Counted from the first letter of the stretch, positions 1,006 to 12,087 are shown. The stretch is DNA of 21,024 bases from Candidatus Falkowbacteria bacterium (GCA_016218485.1 JACRDY010000068.1:1-21024); one strand, 5' to 3'. Notes: a model not told the origin generated them from the letters alone. Numbers and translations: made by a program.

Positions 1006-2038
1006 TCGGATCGCCTGGCAGCGATAGAAAAAAAGACGTGACCTGCCTCCGTTATAACTACGGCAAGGCCAGGAAATCGTCTACAGCGAATTGGAACGCT
1101 GAAAGCAGAGGGCACGTTTTGTCCGCGAGGACAACACGAAGGGCCCATAAGCATTTTGCAGCTTGAGTCCACGTTATAATAATGAAAGAGGTTGACGACC
1201 CATCTGTGAGTACATGGGGAAGTCATCCAATACCACCAAAGCCCTTTCATTATCGGTGGACCGGAGATGTAAAAAAATGTTTTCTTTCGTAACCCAGGGA
1301 GATCTGGCACGAGTCCTCGGAGGTATCCGCGGGACAGAATTTCTGTTCTATGGTAAACTAACCCCGAGGTAGATTAAGAAGTGATTCTTAGTTAATGCTA
1401 TGCCAGAAGTCTGCAGAGCTCGTAGTACCAATCGCCGTCCATTTAGGCGCAATCCTAAATTACAACCGCCGATTGGGAAGGAGCAAATCCAACAAAAACC
1501 GCTTAATCCGCACTACATTGCGGGATTCATAGATGGCGAGGGATCTTTTTCGGTGAGTATTAATCATCATAAAACCCTCACCAGCGGTATTGAAATTAAA
1601 CCGGAGTTTGAAATAGAGCTTCGAGCTGATGATAGGGAAATTCTTGAGCGCATAGTCGCGACCATTGGCTGCGGAAAAGTCTACGATTGCTCATATGAGC
1701 GTTATGGATGGTTCCCGCATGCCAAACTTAAAGTGACGAGTGCAAAAGATTTAGAGGAAAAACTCTTCCCGTTCATTGATCAATACCCCTTGCAAGCAAA
1801 AAAGCGCCAGGTCTATGCCTTATTTCGCGAGATTGTTCTGATGGTGAGAAGTAAGAAACATCTTAGTGAAGAAGGATTGCAAAAAATTCAGCAACTGCGG
1901 AATGAGATGCGAAAATTTGGCAAAAAACATAATTTTGTTGTCAAATTTAACGCTCAGTTGGAAACCGCCAGGATACGGGAAAACCGTTCGTCCGGTGGTG
2001 TCTGACAATAAGTTAGTAATAATTTATTGCATCAAAAA
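1006..2038 (+). other. Group-I-like intron in the 16S rRNA near E. coli position ~1390 (between GGGYCTTGTAC and ACCGCCCGTC). Exact splice junctions were not resolved.
   Basis: The conserved 16S sequence stops at ...gggtcttgtac (1005) and resumes at accgcccgtcacgtcaagg (2039). The intervening ~1 kb carries a LAGLIDADG ORF, which is typical of rRNA group I introns. Confidence 0.6.
1400..2005 (+). CDS. LAGLIDADG homing endonuclease, single-motif type, intron-encoded
   Basis: A 201-aa ORF with the motif NPHYIAGFIDGEGSFSVSI (LAGLIDADG dodecapeptide with the catalytic acidic residue) in its N-terminal part. It is about the size of I-CreI-like homodimeric enzymes and lies wholly inside the 16S interruption. 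Confidence 0.8.
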   Translation: MPEVCRARSTNRRPFRRNPKLQPPIGKEQIQQKPLNPHYIAGFIDGEGSFSVSINHHKTLTSGIEIKPEFEIELRADDREILERIVATIGCGKVYDCSYERYGWFPHAKLKVTSAKDLEEKLFPFIDQYPLQAKKRQVYALFREIVLMVRSKKHLSEEGLQKIQQLRNEMRKFGKKHNFVVKFNAQLETARIRENRSSGGV

Positions 2039-2548
2039 ACCGCCCGTCACGTCAAGGGAGTCGGTAACACCCAAAGTCCACGTTCGTGGGCAAAGGTGGG
2101 ATCGATGACAGGGACGAAGTCGTAACAAGGCATCCGTAGCGGAAGCTGTGGATGGATCACCTCCTTTCTAAGGAGTAACTTCCCGTCAGGCCATTGGCCT
2201 GACGCGGACATACGTGGTCGGTCGGGTTCGATTTATCGGACTCGTTACTCCGGTTAGTTTGAACATATCCCCGTAACCGGCCGCAAGGTCTCTATGGGGT
2301 AAAGGTTTTTATCACTTTTGAGTCGTTAACAATAAAAAATCATCGGCCGATTCGGCGGATGATTTTTTAGATTCAAGATTTAGGAATTAAGAATTAAGAA
2401 TCCAGTGAACGGTTGTTTGAACATAAACACAACCCCACCCTGTCCCTCCCCCTTATGAATAAGGGGGAGAGACTGGTTCGACCATGGACTTCACTAAATT
2501 ATAATTTTAATAGACAAAAACAATCTTAACTGCTAAATTAGTGATACT

Positions 2549-3115
2549 ATGACCGCAGAAACCATGGACTGGCCGCTGCCGATCGCCGAAAAACAGTTTG
2601 ATAACGCCGCGGCAGTGGTAGCTGGGCTGTATACCATTCCCCGCACCGGCTGGGTGCAGCGCGGGGTGGACAACCCGGAAAGTGTCGGGCAGCATACGGA
2701 TGCGCTCGTTACTTTGGCGCGAGAATTAGGGCCGCAGATAGCCGGGCTGGATCAGAAAAAATTAGAACGAATGCTGCAGATTCACGATTGGCCGGAGGCG
2801 CTGGTTGGTGATCAGGTAGCTTTCAGCTCCACAGAAAAACAACAAAAATTTTTAGTAGAAAGGGCCGCGATGCAAAAAATTTGCGCTGCATTAGGAGACG
2901 AGGGAGCGGAAATTATGAACCTGTGGCTGGAGTACACTGATGGCCAGACGGGTGAAGCAAGTATTGCTAAGCAGCTGGATAAACTGCAGGCACTCATGCA
3001 GGCGACCACGTACGAGCGCGCCGGGCAGACGGTGCGAGCACGTGATTTCGTTCACTACCGAGCAATGATTACGCATCCCTTGCTGCGTCAGATGCTGGCT
3101 GAACTGGAAAAATAG
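2549..3115 (+). CDS. HD-domain phosphohydrolase (YfbR/HDDC2-like 5'-deoxynucleotidase family)
   Basis: A 188-aa ORF with an H...HD...D arrangement: RTGWVQRGV-NPESVGQHTDALVTLA ... QIHDWPEALVGD. Confidence 0.6.
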   Translation: MTAETMDWPLPIAEKQFDNAAAVVAGLYTIPRTGWVQRGVDNPESVGQHTDALVTLARELGPQIAGLDQKKLERMLQIHDWPEALVGDQVAFSSTEKQQKFLVERAAMQKICAALGDEGAEIMNLWLEYTDGQTGEASIAKQLDKLQALMQATTYERAGQTVRARDFVHYRAMITHPLLRQMLAELEK

Positions 3116-3337
3116 TTTTTGAAGTTAAAAAAATCGTTGGCAGTGTGCCGGCGGTTTTTTTAACCAGAGAGATAAGAATTAAGATTAAAGATTTAAGAAT
3201 AAATACACCATTCTTAAATTTTTAATCTTATCCCTTAATTCTCCCGCTACTTGACCAATTACCAATTACCAGTAAGATAAGGGTAGGTTTGTCACTATAC
3301 CGTATAATACGGTGCACCAATAGAGGAGGAGGTCACG

Positions 3338-4612
<1,275 letters not shown>

Positions 4613-4647
4613 GGGTCAGGAGGGGAAGTTTTTCGCGAAAATTACAG

Positions 4648-4684
4648 GCCGGGTTCGCAAGGACCCGGCTTGATCTATTTTTTA
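4648..4684 (+). terminator. Candidate intrinsic terminator after purD
   Basis: Hairpin gccgggttcgcaaggacccggc followed by tctatttttt. A second imperfect hairpin plus T-run follows at ~4708-4745. Confidence 0.4.
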
Positions 4685-4854
4685 CTGTTTGGTGGCATCC
4701 CTGCTCGACTCACCCCGCACAATGCGGAGTGGGTGGGTTTTTATTGAATTACTTAAATTCTAAATTCAAAATCCTAAATTCCAAATACTTAAATCATAAA
4801 TTCTAAACACGCAATACCGAGTTTAAGATTTTGGATTTAGGTAGTATGATTCAT

Positions 4855-4911
4855 CCAGCACCTTCCAGAATATCCCGCAGCAAGCTGACGGGATATTCTG
4901 GAAGGTGCTGG
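4855..4911. repeat. Perfect long hairpin / palindromic element, copy 1 of the CCAGCACCTT family
   Basis: ccagcaccttccagaatatcccg-cagcaagctgac-gggatattctggaaggtgctgg, a 23-bp perfect stem. It is itself flanked by an inverted pair of AT-rich word-repeat arms (4745-4800 / 4912-4965). Confidence 0.7.
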
Positions 4912-4990
4912 ATTTATTTAGGATTTTGAATTTTAGGTTTATAATTTAATTCTTAGTTATGGGTAAGTCTCATTCTATAAATTTTCAGAG

Positions 4991-5083
4991 AGCGGGTAGG
5001 GGGAATCGCCAGCTCATCGGCAAAGTCGTGAGCTGATCCGCTAAAGCCCGAAGGGCTATGAGCGGAAACCCCCCTCCAGTTTG
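4991..5083 (-). pseudogene. Partial second copy of the tRNA-Gly 3' portion (anticodon-loop 3' side through the acceptor 3' strand) with a 59-nt structured insertion in the T-loop
   Basis: Minus-strand reading: AAACTGG-AGGGG-GGGGG-TTT[CCGCTCATAGCCCTTCGGGCTTTAGCGGATCAGCTCACGACTTTGCCGATGAGCTGGCG]ATT-CCCCC-TACCCGCT. It matches tRNA-Gly segments on both sides of the insert. The insert has two hairpins, one with a UUCG tetraloop. Confidence 0.5.
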
Positions 5084-5101
5084 CCTGCCCGCCAGAGCCT
5101 C

Positions 5102-5173
5102 AGCGGGTAGGGGGAATTGAACCCCCCTCTCCAGTTTGGAAAACTGGAATAATAACCGCTATACGATACCCGC
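5102..5173 (-). tRNA. tRNA-Gly (anticodon TCC)
   Basis: Reverse complement: GCGGGTA-TC-GTAT-AGCGGTTA-TTAT-T-CCAGT-TTTCCAA-ACTGG-AGAGG-GGGGG-TTCAATT-CCCCC-TACCCGC-T. Cloverleaf with U73 discriminator, closely similar to bacterial tRNA-Gly(UCC). No encoded CCA. Confidence 0.85.
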
Positions 5174-5191
5174 TCAGGCTGAGGCAGGCGG

Positions 5192-5213
5192 GGAAAACTG
5201 GAATAATAATCGC
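5192..5213 (-). pseudogene. Partial copy of the tRNA-Gly D-loop, D-stem 3' strand and anticodon stem/loop up to the anticodon, lying just 5' of the intact tRNA-Gly
   Basis: Minus-strand reading: GCGATTATTATT-CCAGT-TTTCC, against the intact gene GCGGTTATTATT-CCAGT-TTTCC. Together with the 4991-5083 fragment it forms an outer tRNA-Gly-like copy split in the anticodon loop by [spacer + intact tRNA-Gly + spacer]. Confidence 0.45.
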
Positions 5214-5228
5214 TTACCATTATATACA

Positions 5229-5304
5229 TGGTCGGGCCGGCGAGGCTCGAACTCGCGACCTCCTGGTCCCAAACCAGGCGCGCTACCAACTGCGCTACGG
5301 CCCG
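5229..5304 (-). tRNA. tRNA-Pro (anticodon TGG), CCA encoded
   Basis: Reverse complement: CGGGCCG-TA-GCGC-AGTTGGTA-GCGC-G-CCTGG-TTTGGGA-CCAGG-AGGTC-GCGAG-TTCGAGC-CTCGC-CGGCCCG-A-CCA. C1:G72 is typical of tRNA-Pro. Confidence 0.85.
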
Positions 5305-5325
5305 ACCATGTTTTTAATGATGAAA

Positions 5326-5448
5326 GCCGGGACGCGCTTCACCCGCCCAAATTTAGCTCTCATCATTAATGGTATCCGCGATTACCCACCATCGTGTAAT
5401 CAAAACGGACAACGTTTTTGTACCGAGCTAAATTTGGGCGGGTAAACC
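5326..5448 (-). repeat. Copy 1 of a ~125-nt terminally palindromic structured element (candidate ncRNA or MITE), immediately 5' of tRNA-Pro
   Basis: Terminal inverted repeats CACCCGCCCAAATTTAGCTC ... GAGCTAAATTTGGGCGGGTAAACC (~20 bp) enclose internal hairpins (CAAAACG-gacaa-CGTTTTG; GATTAC...GTAATC). Two further copies at 5756-5879 and 6149-6273 show the same organisation. Confidence 0.7.
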
Positions 5449-5465
5449 AACTGCGCTACGGCCCG
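5447..5465 (-). pseudogene. Partial copy of the tRNA-Pro 5' end (acceptor 5' strand through the D-loop), abutting element copy 1
   Basis: Minus-strand reading: CGGGCCGTAGCGCAGTTGG, identical to the first 19 nt of tRNA-Pro, followed directly by the element's TTTACCCGCC end. Confidence 0.5.
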
Positions 5466-5543
5466 TTAATAACAATTAACAGTTAACAATTAACCAGTAA
5501 CAAACAACCAAATATGCTAGTCAATTGTTAAGCGTTAATTTGT

Positions 5544-5640
5544 TAACTGTTAATTGGTGCCGAGGGGCAGAATTGCCCGCTCGTCTTCGCGAGCGGATCC
5601 GCTCAGGCCGAATGGCCATGAGCGGAAACTGCCGACGCTC
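5544..5640 (-). pseudogene. Partial second copy of the tRNA-Phe 3' portion with a ~50-nt structured insertion in the T-loop, and an encoded CCA
   Basis: Minus-strand reading: ...GGCGTC-GGCAG-TT[TCCGCTCATGGCCATTCGGCCTGAGCGGATCCGCTCGCGAAGACGAGCGG]GCAATT-CTGCC-CCTCGGC-A-CCA. The insert shares CCGCTCAT-GCC-TTCGG-C-T-AGCGGATC with the Gly-copy insert. Confidence 0.5.
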
Positions 5641-5662
5641 CCGCCAACTATTCCAGGCAATC

Positions 5663-5734
5663 TGCCGGGGGGCAGAATTGAACTGCCGACGCCATGCTCT
5701 TCAGGCATGCGCTCTACCACTGAGCTACCCCGGC
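5663..5734 (-). tRNA. tRNA-Phe (anticodon GAA)
   Basis: Reverse complement: GCCGGGG-TA-GCTC-AGTGGTA-GAGC-G-CATGC-CTGAAGA-GCATG-GCGTC-GGCAG-TTCAATT-CTGCC-CCCCGGC-A. No encoded CCA. It is flanked by the inverted leader/trailer GCAATCT...AGATTGC. Confidence 0.85.
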
Positions 5735-5755
5735 AGATTGCAAATTATAGTTGTA

Positions 5756-5879
5756 GGCGGGACGCTCTTCACCCGCCCAAATTTAGCTCTAGTAATTAAT
5801 GGTATCTGTGACTCTCTCACGCGCGTGTAATCCAAGCAGATAACGCTTTTGTGCCGAGCTAAATTTAGGCGGGTAAACC
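5756..5879 (-). repeat. Copy 2 of the ~125-nt element, immediately 5' of tRNA-Phe
   Basis: Same terminal inverted repeats (CACCCGCCCAAATTTAGCTC...GAGCTAAATTTAGGCGGGTAAACC). The interior is divergent, but the internal hairpin is kept by different base pairs (AAGC/GCTT versus AAAACG/CGTTTT in copy 1). Confidence 0.7.
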
Positions 5880-5918
5880 AGCCCCGAAGGGGCCCCTTTG
5901 GGGCTGAGCTACCTCGGC
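5880..5918 (-). pseudogene. GC-rich double hairpin plus a 15-nt fragment matching the 5' end of a tRNA-Phe variant
   Basis: Minus-strand reading: GCCGAGGTAGCTCAG-CCCCAAAGGGGCCCCTTCGGGGCTGG. GCCGAGG is exactly complementary to the CCTCGGC acceptor 3' strand of the partial Phe 3' copy at 5544-5640, and not to that of the intact tRNA-Phe (GCCGGGG/CCCCGGC). Confidence 0.45.
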
Positions 5919-5966
5919 TTACCCTGATATCTGAACGGAATATAGTATTAGCAAATAGACTGCATA

Positions 5967-6048
5967 GGGCGTACTTGGATTCCCCGCCTGCCAGCGCCTG
6001 CGGCGCAGCCGTTGGCGGGCAGGGAACCAAGGACCTCGTCATTATCAG
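5967..6048 (-). pseudogene. Partial second copy of the tRNA-Ile 3' portion with a 42-nt GC-rich hairpin insertion in the T-loop
   Basis: Minus-strand reading: CTGATAA-TGACG-AGGTC-CTTGG-TTC[CCTGCCCGCCAACGGCTGCGCCGCAGGCGCTGGCAGGCGGGG]AATCC-AAG-TACGCCC. The insert sits at the same T-loop position (after TTC) as in the Gly and Phe copies. Confidence 0.5.
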
Positions 6049-6066
6049 CTCCGCCCCGCACCAAAA

Positions 6067-6140
6067 TGCGCGTACTTGGATTTGAACCAAGGACCTCGTC
6101 ATTATCAGTGACGCGCTCTAACCAACTGAGCTATACGCGC
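6067..6140 (-). tRNA. tRNA-Ile (anticodon GAT)
   Basis: Reverse complement: GCGCGTA-TA-GCTC-AGTTGGTTA-GAGC-G-CGTCA-CTGATAA-TGACG-AGGTC-CTTGG-TTCAAAT-CCAAG-TACGCGC-A. No encoded CCA. Confidence 0.85.
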
Positions 6141-6148
6141 ATATTGCT

Positions 6149-6273
6149 GCGGGGTGAACGCTCTTCACCCGCCCAAATTTAGCCTTAGTAATTAAGGGTA
6201 ACCGCGATTACTCACCATCGTGTAATCTAAGCGGACAACCTTTTTGTACCGAGCTAAATTTAGGCGGGTAAAC
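6149..6273 (-). repeat. Copy 3 of the ~125-nt element, immediately 5' of tRNA-Ile
   Basis: The terminal inverted repeats and interior are highly similar to copy 1. It is followed at 6274-6313 by the same GC double hairpin and a 5' tRNA fragment GGACGTATAGCTCAG, which pairs with the TACGCCC strand of the partial Ile 3' copy. Confidence 0.7.
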
Positions 6274-6420
6274 CAGCCCCGAAGGGGCCCCTTTGGGGCT
6301 GAGCTATACGTCCGTCATCTAGAGTTTACTGCTAGGGTAGATAAAAATAACTACTCGGCAGTCTAATACAAAACGGTAAAAAAAGCAAGGTACGAGCAGG
6401 CTGATTTAGTCTTAATTTGA

Positions 6421-6449
6421 TTGATTAATTTAGATATTTCGGCTAGTAT
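6421..6449 (+). promoter_or_regulatory. Sigma70-like promoter for mnmA
   Basis: TTGATT, 17-nt spacer, TAGTAT, ending ~15 nt upstream of the ATG at 6464. Confidence 0.45.
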
Positions 6450-6463
6450 GCTAGAGCAGTTTT

Positions 6464-7564
6464 ATGACTCAAAAGAATAAGAAACCCACAGTCATCGTGG
6501 CCATGTCCGGCGGCGTGGATTCGTCTGTCGCGGCCGCTTTACTACAGCGGCAGGGCTATGACGTGCGCGGCGTGCATATCAAGATGTGGTCGGATCCGGA
6601 TATCCCCTGTTTGTTTACTTTTGACCGGATTGACGCCATGAAAGTAGCGATCCAGCTCGGCATTCCTTTCACCACTTGGGATCTGACGCGCGAATACCGC
6701 AGCGCGGTCGTGGACTACATGATCCGCGAGTTTAAGGCCGGTCGGACGCCCAACCCGGACGTGATGTGTAATAGCGAGATCAAGTTCGGGGTGTTTTTGG
6801 ATAAAGTTTTAAAAACGGGCGCGGAGTATTTGGCGACGGGGCATTATGTGAAAAAAGCGCAAAGCGCAAAGCGCAAAGCACAGAGCCAGTCCACGATACA
6901 AAAATTGTATATCGCGGCGGATGGGAATAAGGATCAGAGCTATTTTCTCTGGCGGCTGAATCAGCAGCAGCTGCGGCATAGCCTGTTTCCCCTGGGTGGT
7001 CTGACTAAGCCGCAGGTGCGAGTCCTCGCCAAACAGTTTAAGCTGCCTACCGCTGACAAGCCGGACTCGCAGGGTATCTGCTTCATCGGCGAGATTAACC
7101 TCAAGGATTTCCTGGAACACTACATCCCCCGCCGTCCGGGCACAATCGTGACCACGGACGGCCGCGTACTCGGCCATCATGAGGGTCTCCCCTTCTATAC
7201 CATTGGTCAGCGTGAGGGGCTGGGTCTGGGCGGTGGCATCCCCTACTATGTCGTTGCCAAAAATTTTAAAACCAATCAGCTGATTGTTGGCAGCCGGGGC
7301 GCGGCTGAACTGTTTCTGCCGAGTTTGCGGTTCACCGCCGCCAATTGGCTACTTGGCAGCGAGCCGAAACTGCCTCTGATCTGCCTGGCGCGTATCCGCT
7401 ACCGTCAGCCGCTGGAGCGTTGTCGGGTCAAACGCATCAGCGGTCGCGGCATTCGGGCGATCTATCAAGCGAAATTTACCGAGCCGCAGCGGGCCATTAC
7501 TCCCGGTCAGTCCATTGTGTTGTACAGGAGCGAGGAGATGATCGGGGGCGGGATTATTATTTAG
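6464..7564 (+). CDS. mnmA: tRNA-specific 2-thiouridylase (tRNA (5-methylaminomethyl-2-thiouridylate)-methyltransferase)
   Basis: A 366-aa ORF. PP-loop VAMSGGVDSSV near the N-terminus. Collinear with MnmA throughout (DQSYFL, GICFIGE, ITPGQS..GGGII C-terminus). It contains an ~8-codon in-frame insertion encoded by GCGCAAAGCGCAAAGCGCAAAGCACAGAGC at ~6856-6890. Confidence 0.85.
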   Translation: MTQKNKKPTVIVAMSGGVDSSVAAALLQRQGYDVRGVHIKMWSDPDIPCLFTFDRIDAMKVAIQLGIPFTTWDLTREYRSAVVDYMIREFKAGRTPNPDVMCNSEIKFGVFLDKVLKTGAEYLATGHYVKKAQSAKRKAQSQSTIQKLYIAADGNKDQSYFLWRLNQQQLRHSLFPLGGLTKPQVRVLAKQFKLPTADKPDSQGICFIGEINLKDFLEHYIPRRPGTIVTTDGRVLGHHEGLPFYTIGQREGLGLGGGIPYYVVAKNFKTNQLIVGSRGAAELFLPSLRFTAANWLLGSEPKLPLICLARIRYRQPLERCRVKRISGRGIRAIYQAKFTEPQRAITPGQSIVLYRSEEMIGGGIII

Positions 7565-7700
7565 TCCTTAGTCCATAGTCCCTAGTCCTTAGTCCATAGT
7601 CCTTATTCCATAGTCCTTAGCGTATAGTTTTAGCGTGAAAGCCTCCACTAAGTACTAGGGACTAAGGACTATGGACTATGTATAGGACTATGTACTATTT
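7564..7700. repeat. Palindromic spacer built from TAGTCC/TAGGAC-type 6-9-nt words
   Basis: gtccttagtccatagtccctagtccttagtccatagtcc...actagggactaaggactatggactatgtataggactatg. The two arms are reverse complements of each other. Confidence 0.55.
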
Positions 7701-11907: not shown

Positions 11908-11982
11908 TTGGAGGCCTGGAGGGGAATTGCACCCCTGCATAGAGGTTTTGCAGACCTCTGCCTTACTGCTTGGCTACCAGGC
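11908..11982 (-). tRNA. Candidate tRNA-Cys (anticodon GCA), CCA encoded, with a non-canonical T-loop
   Basis: Reverse complement: GGCCTGG-TA-GCCA-AGCAGTA-AGGC-A-GAGGT-CTGCAAA-ACCTC-TATGC-AGGGG-TGCAATT-CCCCT-CCAGGCC-T-CCA. Perfect 7-bp acceptor, and U73 as expected for Cys. The T-loop UGCAAUU lacks the usual T54-Psi55-C56 (it has G at 55), and the D-stem has 3 bp plus an A-A. Confidence 0.55.
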
Positions 11983-12087
11983 CGTAAATTTACGTGGTCT
12001 TACTATAGCAGGATAAACCTTTAAAATCAAGAGTTTTTGCTGATTAAGAGTTTAGAAATATTTTAGATAGGCTGTGGTAGACTATTT

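Follow-up and report, generated by a model that had tools for sequence, protein, structure and literature searches.

Inverted repeats in the D-loops of tRNA-like shells that enclose intact tRNA genes in a Candidatus Falkowbacteria bacterium

The Correia/NEMIS elements of Neisseria and the ERIC/IRU elements of Enterobacteria are non-coding MITEs of 100-155 nt with terminal inverted repeats of 20-26 bp. They occur as several diverged copies per genome and are transcribed together with adjacent genes, forming long hairpins, and the Correia hairpins are substrates of RNase III. REPINs are REP doublets that form long hairpins in single-stranded DNA or RNA and are mobilised by RAYT transposases. Extended helices are also found in loops of structured RNAs, where rRNA intervening sequences and pre-rRNA stalks are cut by RNase III, and in tmRNA a long helix leading from a tRNA-like acceptor/T-arm domain to another functional module replaces the anticodon arm. 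Disrupted tRNA genes of Archaea and Cyanidioschyzon may contain non-canonical introns, be split or be permuted, and their pieces are spliced via a bulge-helix-bulge into one functional tRNA (PMC3728597, PMC3978253, PMC4390854, PMC3241643). Patescibacteria carry group I introns of several hundred nt, catalytic and self-splicing, at position 35/36 (PMC13011429).

The window analysed here is a stretch of 21,024 nt from a Candidatus Falkowbacteria bacterium (GCA_016218485.1, JACRDY010000068.1). Three copies of an inverted-repeat element lie within a single 1-kb tRNA array of this 21-kb contig, the one contig of the source genome that the analysis covered (Table 1), at the places given in the original prediction: the terminal motif CACCCGCCCAAATTTAGC has six matches at up to three mismatches, one for each arm of the three copies, against 0.03 expected. 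The terminal inverted repeats, predicted at about 20 bp, have arms of 20-22 nt that are 90-95% complementary in all three copies, and the spans in Table 1 are measured from one repeat end to the other. Pairwise identity among the copies is 80-91%, and each is more stable than its shuffles (z = -6 to -7.3). The termini form a GC clamp, TTYACCCGCC-N-AAATTT..., and copy 3 runs TTTACCCGCC...GGGCGGGTGAA. The element has no coding capacity, being crossed only by spurious ORFs, and the one that spans it has no homologues in the protein collection. Rfam 15 returned nothing near gathering score over the element, the chance match to a miRNA model reaching 21 bits where gathering is 51.

Table 1. Features of the tRNA array, listed unit by unit (Ile, Phe, Pro, Gly) with positions in the window.
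Feature	Position	Length	Strand	Remarks
Outer Ile 5' piece	6299-6313		(-)	GGACGTA (acceptor), TA, D-stem GCTC, AG
GC hairpin CCCCAAAGGGGCCCCTTCGGGGC	6276-6298	23 nt	(-)	inserted in outer Ile shell D-loop
Element copy 3	6164-6272	109 nt	(-)	in D-loop of outer tRNA-Ile shell
Outer Ile D-stem 3' strand, then stalk 5' strand	6141-6163		(-)	GAGCG, then TTCACCCCGCAGCAATAT
Inner intact tRNA-Ile(GAU)	6067-6140		(-)	76.4 bits
Ile stalk 3' strand	6049-6066		(-)	TTTTGGTGCGGGGCGGAG
Outer Ile 3' piece	5967-6048		(-)	anticodon-loop remnant CTGATAATGACG, variable region, T-arm, acceptor TACGCCC
Outer Phe 5' piece	5904-5918		(-)	GCCGAGG, TA, GCTC, AG
Element copy 2	5768-5877	110 nt	(-)	in D-loop of outer tRNA-Phe shell
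Outer Phe D-stem 3' strand, then stalk 5' strand	5735-5767		(-)	GAGCG, then TCCCGCCTACAACTATAATTTGCAATCT (holds TATAAT)
Inner intact tRNA-Phe(GAA)	5663-5734		(-)	69.8 bits
Phe stalk 3' strand and outer Phe 3' piece	5558-5662		(-)	stalk strand 5639-5662
Outer Pro 5' piece	5447-5465		(-)	
Element copy 1	5338-5446	109 nt	(-)	in D-loop of outer tRNA-Pro 5' piece
Outer Pro D-stem 3' strand, then stalk 5' strand	5305-5337		(-)	GCGCG, then stalk
Inner intact tRNA-Pro(UGG)	5229-5304		(-)	70.4 bits
Pro stalk 3' strand, outer Gly 5' piece, Gly stalk 5' strand	5174-5228		(-)	Pro stalk strand 5215-5228
Inner intact tRNA-Gly(UCC)	5102-5173		(-)	59.4 bits
Gly stalk 3' strand and outer Gly 3' piece	4991-5101		(-)	Gly stalk strand 5084-5101

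Each element copy is flanked on one side by the acceptor 5' strand, U8/A9, the D-stem 5' strand and AG of the neighbouring tRNA, and on the other by the D-stem 3' strand GAGCG (GCGCG for Pro). Because both D-stem strands bracket it, the element lies inside the D-loop of a duplicated tRNA and is no leader. In the original prediction every copy stood just upstream of a tRNA and on its strand; the strand is right and the leader position is not, since the element is a D-loop insert of an outer tRNA. The predicted short distance to the tRNA also stands, at 7-21 nt by the boundaries then used and 23-33 nt when counted from the repeat end. The element junctions read ...TGG/TTTACCC...GGGTGAA/GAGCG (Pro: GCGCG). 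No target-site duplication is visible at them: relative to a native D-loop, the element stands in for TA, with no bases repeated.

Of the contig's five tRNAs, four (Ile, Phe, Pro and Gly) are nested in this way. A unit runs from the acceptor 5' strand through the D-stem, the element and the D-stem 3' strand to a long stalk with an intact tRNA; after the stalk, its 3' end is made up of the outer T-arm, with a hairpin insert of its own, and the acceptor 3' strand. The inner tRNAs are flanked by their own colinear duplicates, whose interruptions all fall in the D-loop, the T-loop or the anticodon arm or loop, and MFE folds recover the nested layout unprompted. Flanking self-duplicates were looked for around tRNA-Cys in the same contig, and none was found; tRNA-Cys served as the internal control, only four usable tRNAs being present among 117 random loci.

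The units are preserved to different extents. The outer Ile acceptor strand pairs 6/7 with its 3' strand, and a 42-nt hairpin (5982-6023) is inserted in the outer Ile T-loop. The 23-nt GC hairpin of this shell has a second, identical copy in the outer Phe shell (5881-5903), and both belong to a 58-nt exact repeat (5854-5911 = 6249-6306). The outer Phe acceptor pairs 7/7 and differs from the inner stem by one compensatory change (A5:U68 vs G:C); its 3' piece consists of variable region, T-arm, acceptor 3' strand CCTCGGC and then A, and in the T-arm a 51-nt two-hairpin insert (5576-5626) separates T55 from C56. For Pro, positions 5446-5465 are a 20-nt exact duplicate of tRNA-Pro positions 1-20, and the array holds no matching 3' piece. 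The outer Gly 5' piece (5192-5214) extends from D-loop to anticodon, ending ...CCAGTTTTCC, and the stalk 5' strand CCGCCTGCCTCAGCCTGA (5174-5191) is inserted directly after the anticodon; the 3' piece comprises the remaining anticodon arm, the T-arm with a 58-nt two-hairpin insert (5009-5066) and the acceptor 3' strand TACCCGC. An outer Gly acceptor 5' strand is absent. In each unit the inner intact tRNA is the working gene, and the outer shell is unable to decode.

We rejected an assembly artefact on three grounds: the duplicated pieces of tRNA, 10-25 nt long, are shorter than assembler k-mers, the copies have diverged, and about 25 loci from unrelated projects show the same layout. As an artefact check we also used the sole other assembly of this organism, an independent 1.4-kb Logan contig that is 100% identical over 6249-7640.

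The interruptions could in principle be novel bacterial tRNA introns, with the inserts excised and the outer exons ligated to give two functional tRNAs per unit. The insertion positions, namely the D-loop, the anticodon loop or stem junction, and the T-loop, do resemble those of non-canonical introns in Cyanidioschyzon and Crenarchaeota (PMC3241643, PMC3728597), an abundance of tRNA introns is known from Patescibacteria (PMC13011429), and in another nested locus (L139) the joined outer exons would yield an almost complete tRNA-Ile. However, the outer Phe shell of the window is without any anticodon arm, joining the outer Ile exons yields no more than a 3-bp anticodon stem and a 6-nt T-loop, and outer Pro and Gly are halves unable to pair with each other; for the Phe, Pro and Gly units the reading is already contradicted. 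A bulge-helix-bulge motif is absent at the element, whose fully paired helix continues into the D-stem with no 3-nt bulges. Group I and group II intron models found no match within 4500-6700 at E up to 5, the sole intron match in the window being at 1370-1483, and the outer T-loops of L139 and of a further locus, L143, carry C at the universally conserved U55. We therefore consider excision and ligation of the outer exons very improbable.

The original prediction had proposed that the element is a selected RNA or DNA structure that may supply promoters or leader-processing signals. In its favour are the position of all three copies upstream of a tRNA on the same strand, their very stable folds, and a TATAAT that is indeed present about 9 nt upstream of tRNA-Phe. 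This hexamer has no acceptable -35, however, and is located in the stalk, outside the element. Promoter-like sites (-35/-10 with 16-18-nt spacing) number 3, no enrichment over the 2.1 +/- 1.4 expected from shuffles, and no element or stalk contains one. The element is no promoter, and tRNA-Cys, tRNA-Gly and the tRNAs of relatives manage without it. The bracketing D-stem strands mark an insertion in tRNA-derived sequence. Covariation had been claimed for an internal hairpin (AAGC/GCTT versus AAAACG/CGTTTT), and this claim fell away: only one pair is compensatory, copy 3 does not keep the hairpin intact, and equally high scores are reached by 319 of 500 shuffles, in a comparison of three sequences with low power. 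RNAalifold favours a different, mutually exclusive internal hairpin, in which 1/37 pairs is compensatory.

Twenty-nine stalks fold alike on either strand (-19.9 vs -19.5 kcal/mol; Wilcoxon p = 0.63), and their G-U counts, 45 vs 48 by strand, have no sense-strand bias. The three element copies of the window fold 4-6 kcal/mol better on the tRNA strand, through substitutions that are largely shared among them. RNA-level structure deduced from G-U asymmetry in the element helix was withdrawn in view of the 29 independent stalks without strand bias. We read the stalks as palindromes at the level of DNA and not of RNA and count this in favour of the mobile-element explanation developed below. With no promoter enrichment, no covariation excess and no stalk G-U bias, a selected structure that supplies promoters or leader-processing signals is highly unlikely.

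The tRNA-within-tRNA layout is found again in uncultured (CPR) bacteria that are only distantly related. Metagenomes were scanned for a tRNA-Ile anticodon-loop segment that is followed by a second one 42-72 nt downstream, a pattern that selects for tRNA-Ile. It matched 42 loci, and about 25 of these are nests in which an outer 5' piece and an outer 3' piece enclose an intact tRNA-Ile borne on a stalk. The nested tRNA-Ile loci cover at least 14 populations, and 16S identity among the carriers goes from 86% down to 76%. Several nests have more than one layer (L140, L123 and L161, the last with three layers for Phe and at least three for Gly). Our literature search found no description of nested bacterial tRNA genes, and the layout appears to be so far undescribed. 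A search by synteny with the MnmA homologue, whose nearest relative is 64% identical, gave no homologue with a tRNA array beside mnmA. Some scan matches (L144, L151, L154, L156 and L157) come from ordinary bacteria and are simple partial tRNA duplications.

Fragments of tRNA genes are also left by integrases that use att sites in them, and the repeats could then be left-over ends of integrated elements. Such fragments are common in prokaryotes (PMC9897764), and the partial duplications just mentioned are of this kind. The downstream fragments of the window start in classic crossover zones, namely the anticodon loop (Ile, Gly) or the variable region (Phe), and in L162 a truncated serine recombinase gene adjoins tRNA-Ala. 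Site-specific integration, however, gives direct repeats of one tRNA end with a whole element between them; it does not yield a 5' and a 3' piece that match and fit closely around an intact tRNA on a 15-30-bp inverted-repeat stalk, and it leaves the D- and T-loop hairpins and the two or three concentric layers unexplained. None of the 10 window ORFs scanned with Pfam is an integrase. An origin of the nests as integration scars is hardly credible.

The element belongs to a family that is shared with the stalks. The motif TTCACCCGCC occurs 11 times in 236 kb, against 0.45 expected, and every site is a stalk base or an arm of the window's element. Nest stalks of other loci have the terminal motif TTCACCCGCC-N-AAATTT in common with it, and in further genomes the motif encloses different contents. 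Organisms at 76-86% 16S identity share conserved stalk termini, TTCAYCC(C)GC / GCGGG(G)CAAG. These conserved TTCACCCGCC-N-AAATTT termini point to a putative protein that recognises them. In L162, the D-loop of the outer Ile shell holds an element of about 115 nt with related termini, inserted at a point that differs by a few nucleotides from that in the window, and the same locus has a small element whose arms equal its tRNA stalk. Not every related copy is tRNA-adjacent: L149 carries two free-standing GC-clamp copies that are 95% identical, in opposite orientations and far from tRNAs, both flanked by TCAA, which is either a target site or part of the element.

Comparison with the closest relative, L161 (86% 16S identity), also bears on mobility. 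Its outer Ile and Phe shells are without the element and have other D-loop hairpins in its place, while the outer Ile 3' pieces of the two organisms are 95% identical, T-loop insert included. The three substitutions that separate the window's outer T-arm from that of L161 are the bases of the window's own inner tRNA. We infer from these observations that the element is probably mobile. Inspection of the window and the fetched loci revealed neither a transposase nor an autonomous partner sharing the element's termini, and no clean filled-versus-empty site was seen between close strains. The two-arm pattern CCGCCYAAATTTAG N{60,85} CTAAATTTRGGCGG had no match in viral contigs or metagenomes, and the single-arm and T-loop-insert patterns had none in viral contigs; the window's exact element is therefore absent from those collections. 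A 16-nt motif, which is too short for the purpose, gave 117 chance matches in a 596-Gb genome collection, of which BLAST found none related.

On balance we lean towards the explanation that the repeats are copies of an element of about 109 nt from a MITE-like inverted-repeat family that targets tRNA loops and whose tRNA-carrying versions make the nests. This is close to what the original prediction had held in reserve, a MITE with a preference for tRNAs: the repeats are long, the copies non-coding, the element is missing from the corresponding shells of L161, and the same termini surround other contents elsewhere. According to this explanation, a family of inverted-repeat insertions would land in the loops of tRNA genes in Patescibacteria. 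The outer shell would be what is left of an older, now split copy of the tRNA gene, in which a cassette consisting of an inverted-repeat stalk and a complete cognate tRNA interrupts the anticodon arm. Where the tRNA gene is single-copy, an insertion would survive only if the cassette brings the same tRNA, and repeated rounds of cassette insertion would give several nest layers. Cargo-less copies such as the 109-nt element would persist only in shells that are already dead, which would explain why D- and T-loop hairpins are confined to outer layers. In a transcript of the array, the element would form a 22-bp helix, plausibly a substrate of RNase III. More tentatively, and with somewhat less than even confidence, we propose a class of small, undescribed inverted-repeat cassettes in Patescibacteria, each with an entire tRNA gene, that enter the resident copy of their own tRNA, replace the gene that they destroy and recreate their target, building nests of up to three layers that are later colonised by cargo-less relatives.

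In favour of dispensable shells, the window's Pro unit lacks its outer 3' piece and its Gly unit the outer acceptor 5' strand, and in L124, L141 and L145 the shell is a 3' piece only; the inner tRNA is intact in all of them. Against the mobile-element explanation, insertion in loops only would also be expected from selection on a functional folded shell, and the stalk termini and the T-loop hairpin shared with L161 are conserved far beyond neutral DNA, which implies either recent horizontal spread or functional constraint. The shell, hairpin inserts and stalk may thus form a functional scaffold, a selected tRNA-like precursor architecture. The acceptor/T-arm minihelix would recruit RNase P, RNase Z or the CCA-adding enzyme, processing stalks like those of pre-rRNA would be formed by the long helices and serve RNase III or some factor specific for their sequence, and the whole would present, protect or time the release of the inner tRNA, with the 109-nt element as an expansion segment.

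Several features of the shells fit such a scaffold. All insertions are in cloverleaf loops and never in stems. In nearly every case the acceptor and T stems of the outer copy are completely paired, with differences that compensate each other. In 10 loci whose outer T-loop is canonical, the outer acceptor strands pair 7/7 with sequences that differ between loci, and L139 and L143 share the derived, non-canonical outer T-loop TCCGATT and yet differ at three compensatory pairs. The conserved stalk termini, the near-identity of the window and L161 Ile 3' pieces, and the greater stability of the window's elements on the tRNA strand point the same way. Automatic outer T-arm boundaries are unreliable for shells with T-loop inserts or non-canonical loops, and the values for the window, L161, L125, L133, L141 and L145 were taken by reading the sequences. 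On the other side, shells are often incomplete around an intact tRNA, as described above, or decayed (L133, T-stem 3/5; L125, acceptor 5/7), and the number of layers differs inside a single population (L123/L127/L134/L140/L153). Most tRNAs are plain: about 18 of 23 tRNAs from the same genomes but outside the search selection have no self-fragments, like tRNA-Cys in the window. The D-loop inserts are unlike between the window and L161, the T-arm substitutions that match the window's inner tRNA fit gene conversion and not selection, and the stalks have no sense-strand G-U bias. A functional scaffold is, in our judgement, unlikely, though clearly more plausible than introns, leader signals or integration scars.

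If the nests do arise from tRNA-carrying cassettes, a mobile element invades essential single-copy genes and the host survives with the replacement it supplies; such cassettes would be, in effect, a self-compensating gene-replacement drive for tRNA genes and a route for horizontal tRNA gene replacement in highly reduced CPR genomes. If instead the shells are functional, they represent a new kind of bacterial tRNA precursor architecture. In either case, tRNA annotation of such genomes will report stray fragments or miss the context, and the nest repeats break assemblies; the Logan contig stops exactly at one of them, the 58-nt repeat.

Compared with Correia and ERIC MITEs, the window's element is without a visible TA or other target-site duplication and has no known cognate transposase, and 3/3 of its copies lie in D-loops of disrupted tRNA copies. 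To our knowledge, termini that also bracket whole tRNA genes, as in the window's family, have not been reported for those MITEs. Like REPINs, the element is a non-autonomous, GC-rich palindromic hairpin former of about 100 nt with no target-site duplication; unlike them, it comes with no RAYT gene or conserved GTAG-type REP head that we could see. REPINs are extragenic, and we know of none that target tRNA loops or carry tRNAs. With rRNA intervening sequences, pre-rRNA stalks and tmRNA the nest helices share an analogy only, and neither ARAGORN nor Rfam found a tmRNA in the window. The tRNA fragments of integrative elements (PMC9897764) are similar in being partial copies that adjoin an intact tRNA and break off in the anticodon loop or close to the T-arm; here, in contrast, matched pieces enclose the tRNA concentrically at 15-30 nt in up to three layers, and no integrase-bearing element lies between the repeats. 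Archaeal and Cyanidioschyzon genes likewise have D-loop, anticodon-region and T-loop interruptions, sometimes several per gene, whereas the outer pieces described here cannot rebuild a decoding tRNA, the interruption holds a second complete tRNA, there is no bulge-helix-bulge and the host is a bacterium. The group I introns of Patescibacteria (PMC13011429) occur in the same phylum and also interrupt the anticodon loop in a way that standard annotation misses; the inserts of the nests differ from them in having no group I match and in consisting of either a stalk-borne tRNA or a 109-nt hairpin.

The window, 21,024 bp long, comprises one entire contig from a genome bin of Candidatus Falkowbacteria (Patescibacteria/CPR). 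It contains purD, mnmA, polA, a 16S rRNA gene of which the 3' part is present, and five tRNA genes, the tRNAs on the minus strand. The three-copy repeat described in the original prediction is real: the terminal motif of this element of about 109 nt is found six times in the window, once per arm in each of the three copies, where 0.03 would be expected, and the element's arms of 20-22 nt are 90-95% complementary. Every copy folds more stably than its shuffles (z = -6 to -7.3). An independent Logan assembly, which reproduced 6249-7640 at 100% identity and stops exactly at the start of a 58-nt exact repeat common to copies 2 and 3, excludes an assembly artefact; the duplicated tRNA pieces are also too short for assembly loops.

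The placement of the element just upstream of a tRNA, as first proposed, overlooked that both halves of a tRNA D-arm bracket every copy. Read on the tRNA strand, the element is preceded by an acceptor 5' strand, U8/A9, a D-stem 5' strand (GCTC; GCGC in Pro) and the start of a D-loop; after it come GAGC or GCGC as the 3' strand of the D-stem, then G26. Beyond G26 lies a 15-30-bp helix that prolongs the acceptor stem of an intact tRNA (inverted repeats I6, I7 and I14), and then that tRNA's 3' half recurs as variable region, T-arm and acceptor 3' strand, with a hairpin of 42-58 nt inserted in its T-loop at position 55/56 or 56/57. An outer shell, likewise derived from a tRNA, therefore encloses each intact tRNA of the Ile, Phe, Pro and Gly units, and where the element occurs it interrupts the shell's D-loop. 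Unconstrained RNAfold gives back this nested architecture. The outer shells cannot decode: the anticodon arm is missing from outer Phe, and outer Ile would have an anticodon stem of 3 bp.

Features of the window (forward-strand positions)
Feature	Position	Strand	Remarks
Element copy 1 (Pro unit)	5338-5446	minus	repeat end to repeat end
Element copy 2 (Phe unit)	5768-5877	minus	repeat end to repeat end
Element copy 3 (Ile unit)	6164-6272	minus	repeat end to repeat end
Phe shell			acceptor stem 7/7 paired (GCCGAGG/CCTCGGC); compensatory change relative to inner stem
Ile shell			acceptor stem 6/7 paired; compensatory swap at positions 2:71
Pro shell			5' piece only
Gly shell			no 5' acceptor strand; split directly after anticodon
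tRNA-Cys	11909-11983		plain gene, no flanking self-duplicates; internal control
Outer Gly T-loop insert	5009-5066
Outer Phe T-loop insert	5576-5626
AT-rich palindrome	5473-5556		TTAACAGTTAACAATTAAC units; spacer between Phe and Pro units
Promoter-like match	5553-5524	minus	within the palindrome
Group-II-D1D4-1 match	1370-1483	plus	Rfam, 48 bits (gathering score 35)
LAGLIDADG endonuclease ORF	1400-2005	plus	start overlapped by group-II-D1D4-1 match
16S rRNA 3' end	1021
Perfect 25-bp inverted repeat	4853-4877 / 4889-4913		inside the 18-bp repeat
Perfect 18-bp inverted repeat	4762-4779 / 4916-4933
AT-rich repeats	4747-4818		14-nt periodicity; flank the nested inverted repeats

We also considered whether the element acts as RNA. 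The covariation claimed for its internal hairpin did not hold up, as that hairpin has one compensatory pair, is broken in copy 3 and is equalled by 319 of 500 shuffles; RNAalifold chose another internal hairpin, with 1 compensatory pair in 37. Because of G-U pairs, folding of the three window copies is 4-6 kcal/mol more stable on the tRNA strand than on the other, but the substitutions behind this difference are mostly common to the copies. Over 29 independent stalks (the helices between shell and inner tRNA) the strand bias is absent (-19.9 vs -19.5 kcal/mol; G-U 45 vs 48; p = 0.63). No Rfam family was matched by the element. Nor did the suggested promoter role find support, promoter-like sites being neither enriched nor present within the element. 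The AT-rich palindrome may drive the Pro-Gly part of the array, because it holds the array's sole minus-strand promoter-like match.

Sequence-based searches for the element, including viral contigs and metagenomes, recovered no relatives, and the synteny route via mnmA homologues recovered no related array. We therefore scanned metagenomes for the architecture itself, a tRNA-Ile(GAU) anticodon-loop-plus-variable segment recurring 42-72 nt downstream, a spacing too short for a second complete gene. Among the 42 loci obtained, about 12 are coding repeats, a few from ordinary bacteria are partial duplications of a simple kind, and about 25, which represent at least 14 populations, have the same nest as the window. 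From 5' to 3' such a nest consists of an outer 5' piece with GAGCR at its end, a stalk strand that starts TTCAYCC(C)GC, the intact tRNA-Ile, a stalk strand with GCGGG(G)CAAG at its end, and an outer 3' piece that starts CTGATAA. Ten loci have a canonical outer T-loop; in all of these the outer acceptor strands are 7/7 paired and differ in sequence from the inner stems. Layers can be repeated: L140 and L123 have two round tRNA-Ile, and in L161 tRNA-Phe has three concentric layers, each with a perfectly paired acceptor stem and with D-loop and T-loop hairpins in the outermost only, while a Gly nest has at least three up to the contig end. The closest relative of the window's array is again L161, which keeps the Ile-Phe order, has an almost identical Gly stalk and shows 95% identity over the outer Ile 3' piece and its T-loop insert. 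Among carriers for which a 16S gene is present, 16S identity to the window is 86%, 86% and 78%, and to one another 76%, so nesting extends over family-to-class depth.

Several loci showed further peculiarities. L123, L127, L131, L134, L140 and L153 represent one population from several metagenomes, in which layer numbers and recombinant combinations differ and an exact 46-nt 5' unit occurs once or twice; this variation indicates rapid unequal recombination among layers. The outer tRNA-Ile T-loops of L139 and L143 both read TCCGATT, with C replacing the universally conserved U55, and the two loci differ by compensatory pairs in T-stems and acceptor stems. Downstream of tRNA-Phe in L150 (oriented, 4822-4960) lie 5'-half fragments of it (positions 12-27 and 28-38), an arrangement unlike the concentric nests that appears permuted. 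The L161 nests lie directly downstream of a 16S rRNA gene on the same strand (1457-3161), whose 1705 nt against a 1533-position model imply about 170 nt of inserted sequence somewhere within.

The element and the stalks share their termini. Within 236 kb the 10-mer TTCACCCGCC appears 11 times (0.45 expected), always in a window element arm or a stalk base round a nested tRNA-Ile (L123 group and L161), and the AAATTT after it is likewise common to both. In L162 the D-loop of the outer Ile shell contains an element of about 115 nt with related termini (TTGCCCCGCC...GGCGGGGTGAA, followed by G), inserted a few nucleotides off the window's point; L162 has in addition a small inverted-repeat element with arms equal to the stalk round the inner tRNA of that locus. 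Two GC-clamp inverted-repeat elements of about 135 nt, 95% identical, lie in L149 at 2685-2825 and 5277-5410 (numbered along the tRNA strand), in opposite orientations in ordinary intergenic DNA, both TCAA-flanked and far from any tRNA, which look like free-standing MITE-like relatives. Judged by these common termini and the L149 copies, the window element is one member of a family of inverted-repeat insertions, with either a complete tRNA or a short hairpin inside. In the outer Gly and Phe shells the T-loop inserts have their first hairpin in common (TCCGCTCAT-GCC-TTCGG-C...AGCGGA, 81-88% identical), which makes up another small repeat family, separate from the D-loop element; viral contigs contained no match to it.

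The most economical model, which we favour by a modest degree, is insertion of a MITE-like inverted-repeat family into tRNA loops. Where a genome has single-copy tRNA genes, an insertion would survive only if it carried the same tRNA, giving nests; the cargo tRNA would recreate the target, allowing repeated layers, and cargo-less copies would survive only in shells already dead. This fits because only outer layers carry hairpins, the inner tRNA stays intact where shells are incomplete, layer number varies within one population and L161 shells lack the 109-nt element. We find it rather doubtful that the shells are a functional tRNA-like scaffold or processing stalk, a reading favoured by the restriction of all insertions to cloverleaf loops, by shells that are intact almost throughout, by very strong conservation of stalk termini and T-loop hairpin at 76-86% 16S identity, and by L139 and L143, which share a non-canonical T-loop yet are three compensatory pairs apart. 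Compensatory differences between layers are expected on the insertion model too, because each layer would once have been a working tRNA. The three substitutions separating the outer T-arms of the window and L161 all match the inner tRNA of the window itself, a pattern that points to gene conversion. Neither a transposase, a target-site duplication nor a strain-level filled-versus-empty pair was found in the window and retrieved loci, and mobility is thus something we infer. Tests of the intron, promoter and integrase-scar readings gave a poor fit.

Other features were seen nearby. In L162 a truncated large serine recombinase ORF (3330-4286, minus; Recombinase, Zn_ribbon_recom) abuts tRNA-Ala and adjoins the nested tRNA-Ile; it may be the trace of an integrated element, or else a candidate for the enzyme behind the rearrangements. 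The nested inverted repeats between purD and the tRNA array (4747-4933) may act as a bidirectional terminator, or may be a further inverted-repeat element. The group-II-D1D4-1 match lies just downstream of the 16S 3' end; a recent survey found Patescibacteria to be without group II introns except fragments (PMC13011429).

The element itself would be a new bacterial MITE. In the literature searched there is no description of a tRNA-in-tRNA nest or of common termini bracketing whole tRNA genes. Closest in theme are group I introns in tRNAs of Patescibacteria (PMC13011429), fragments of tRNA genes that stem from integrated elements (PMC9897764) and disrupted archaeal or red-algal tRNA genes (PMC3728597, PMC3978253), each of which differs from the nests in a defining feature.
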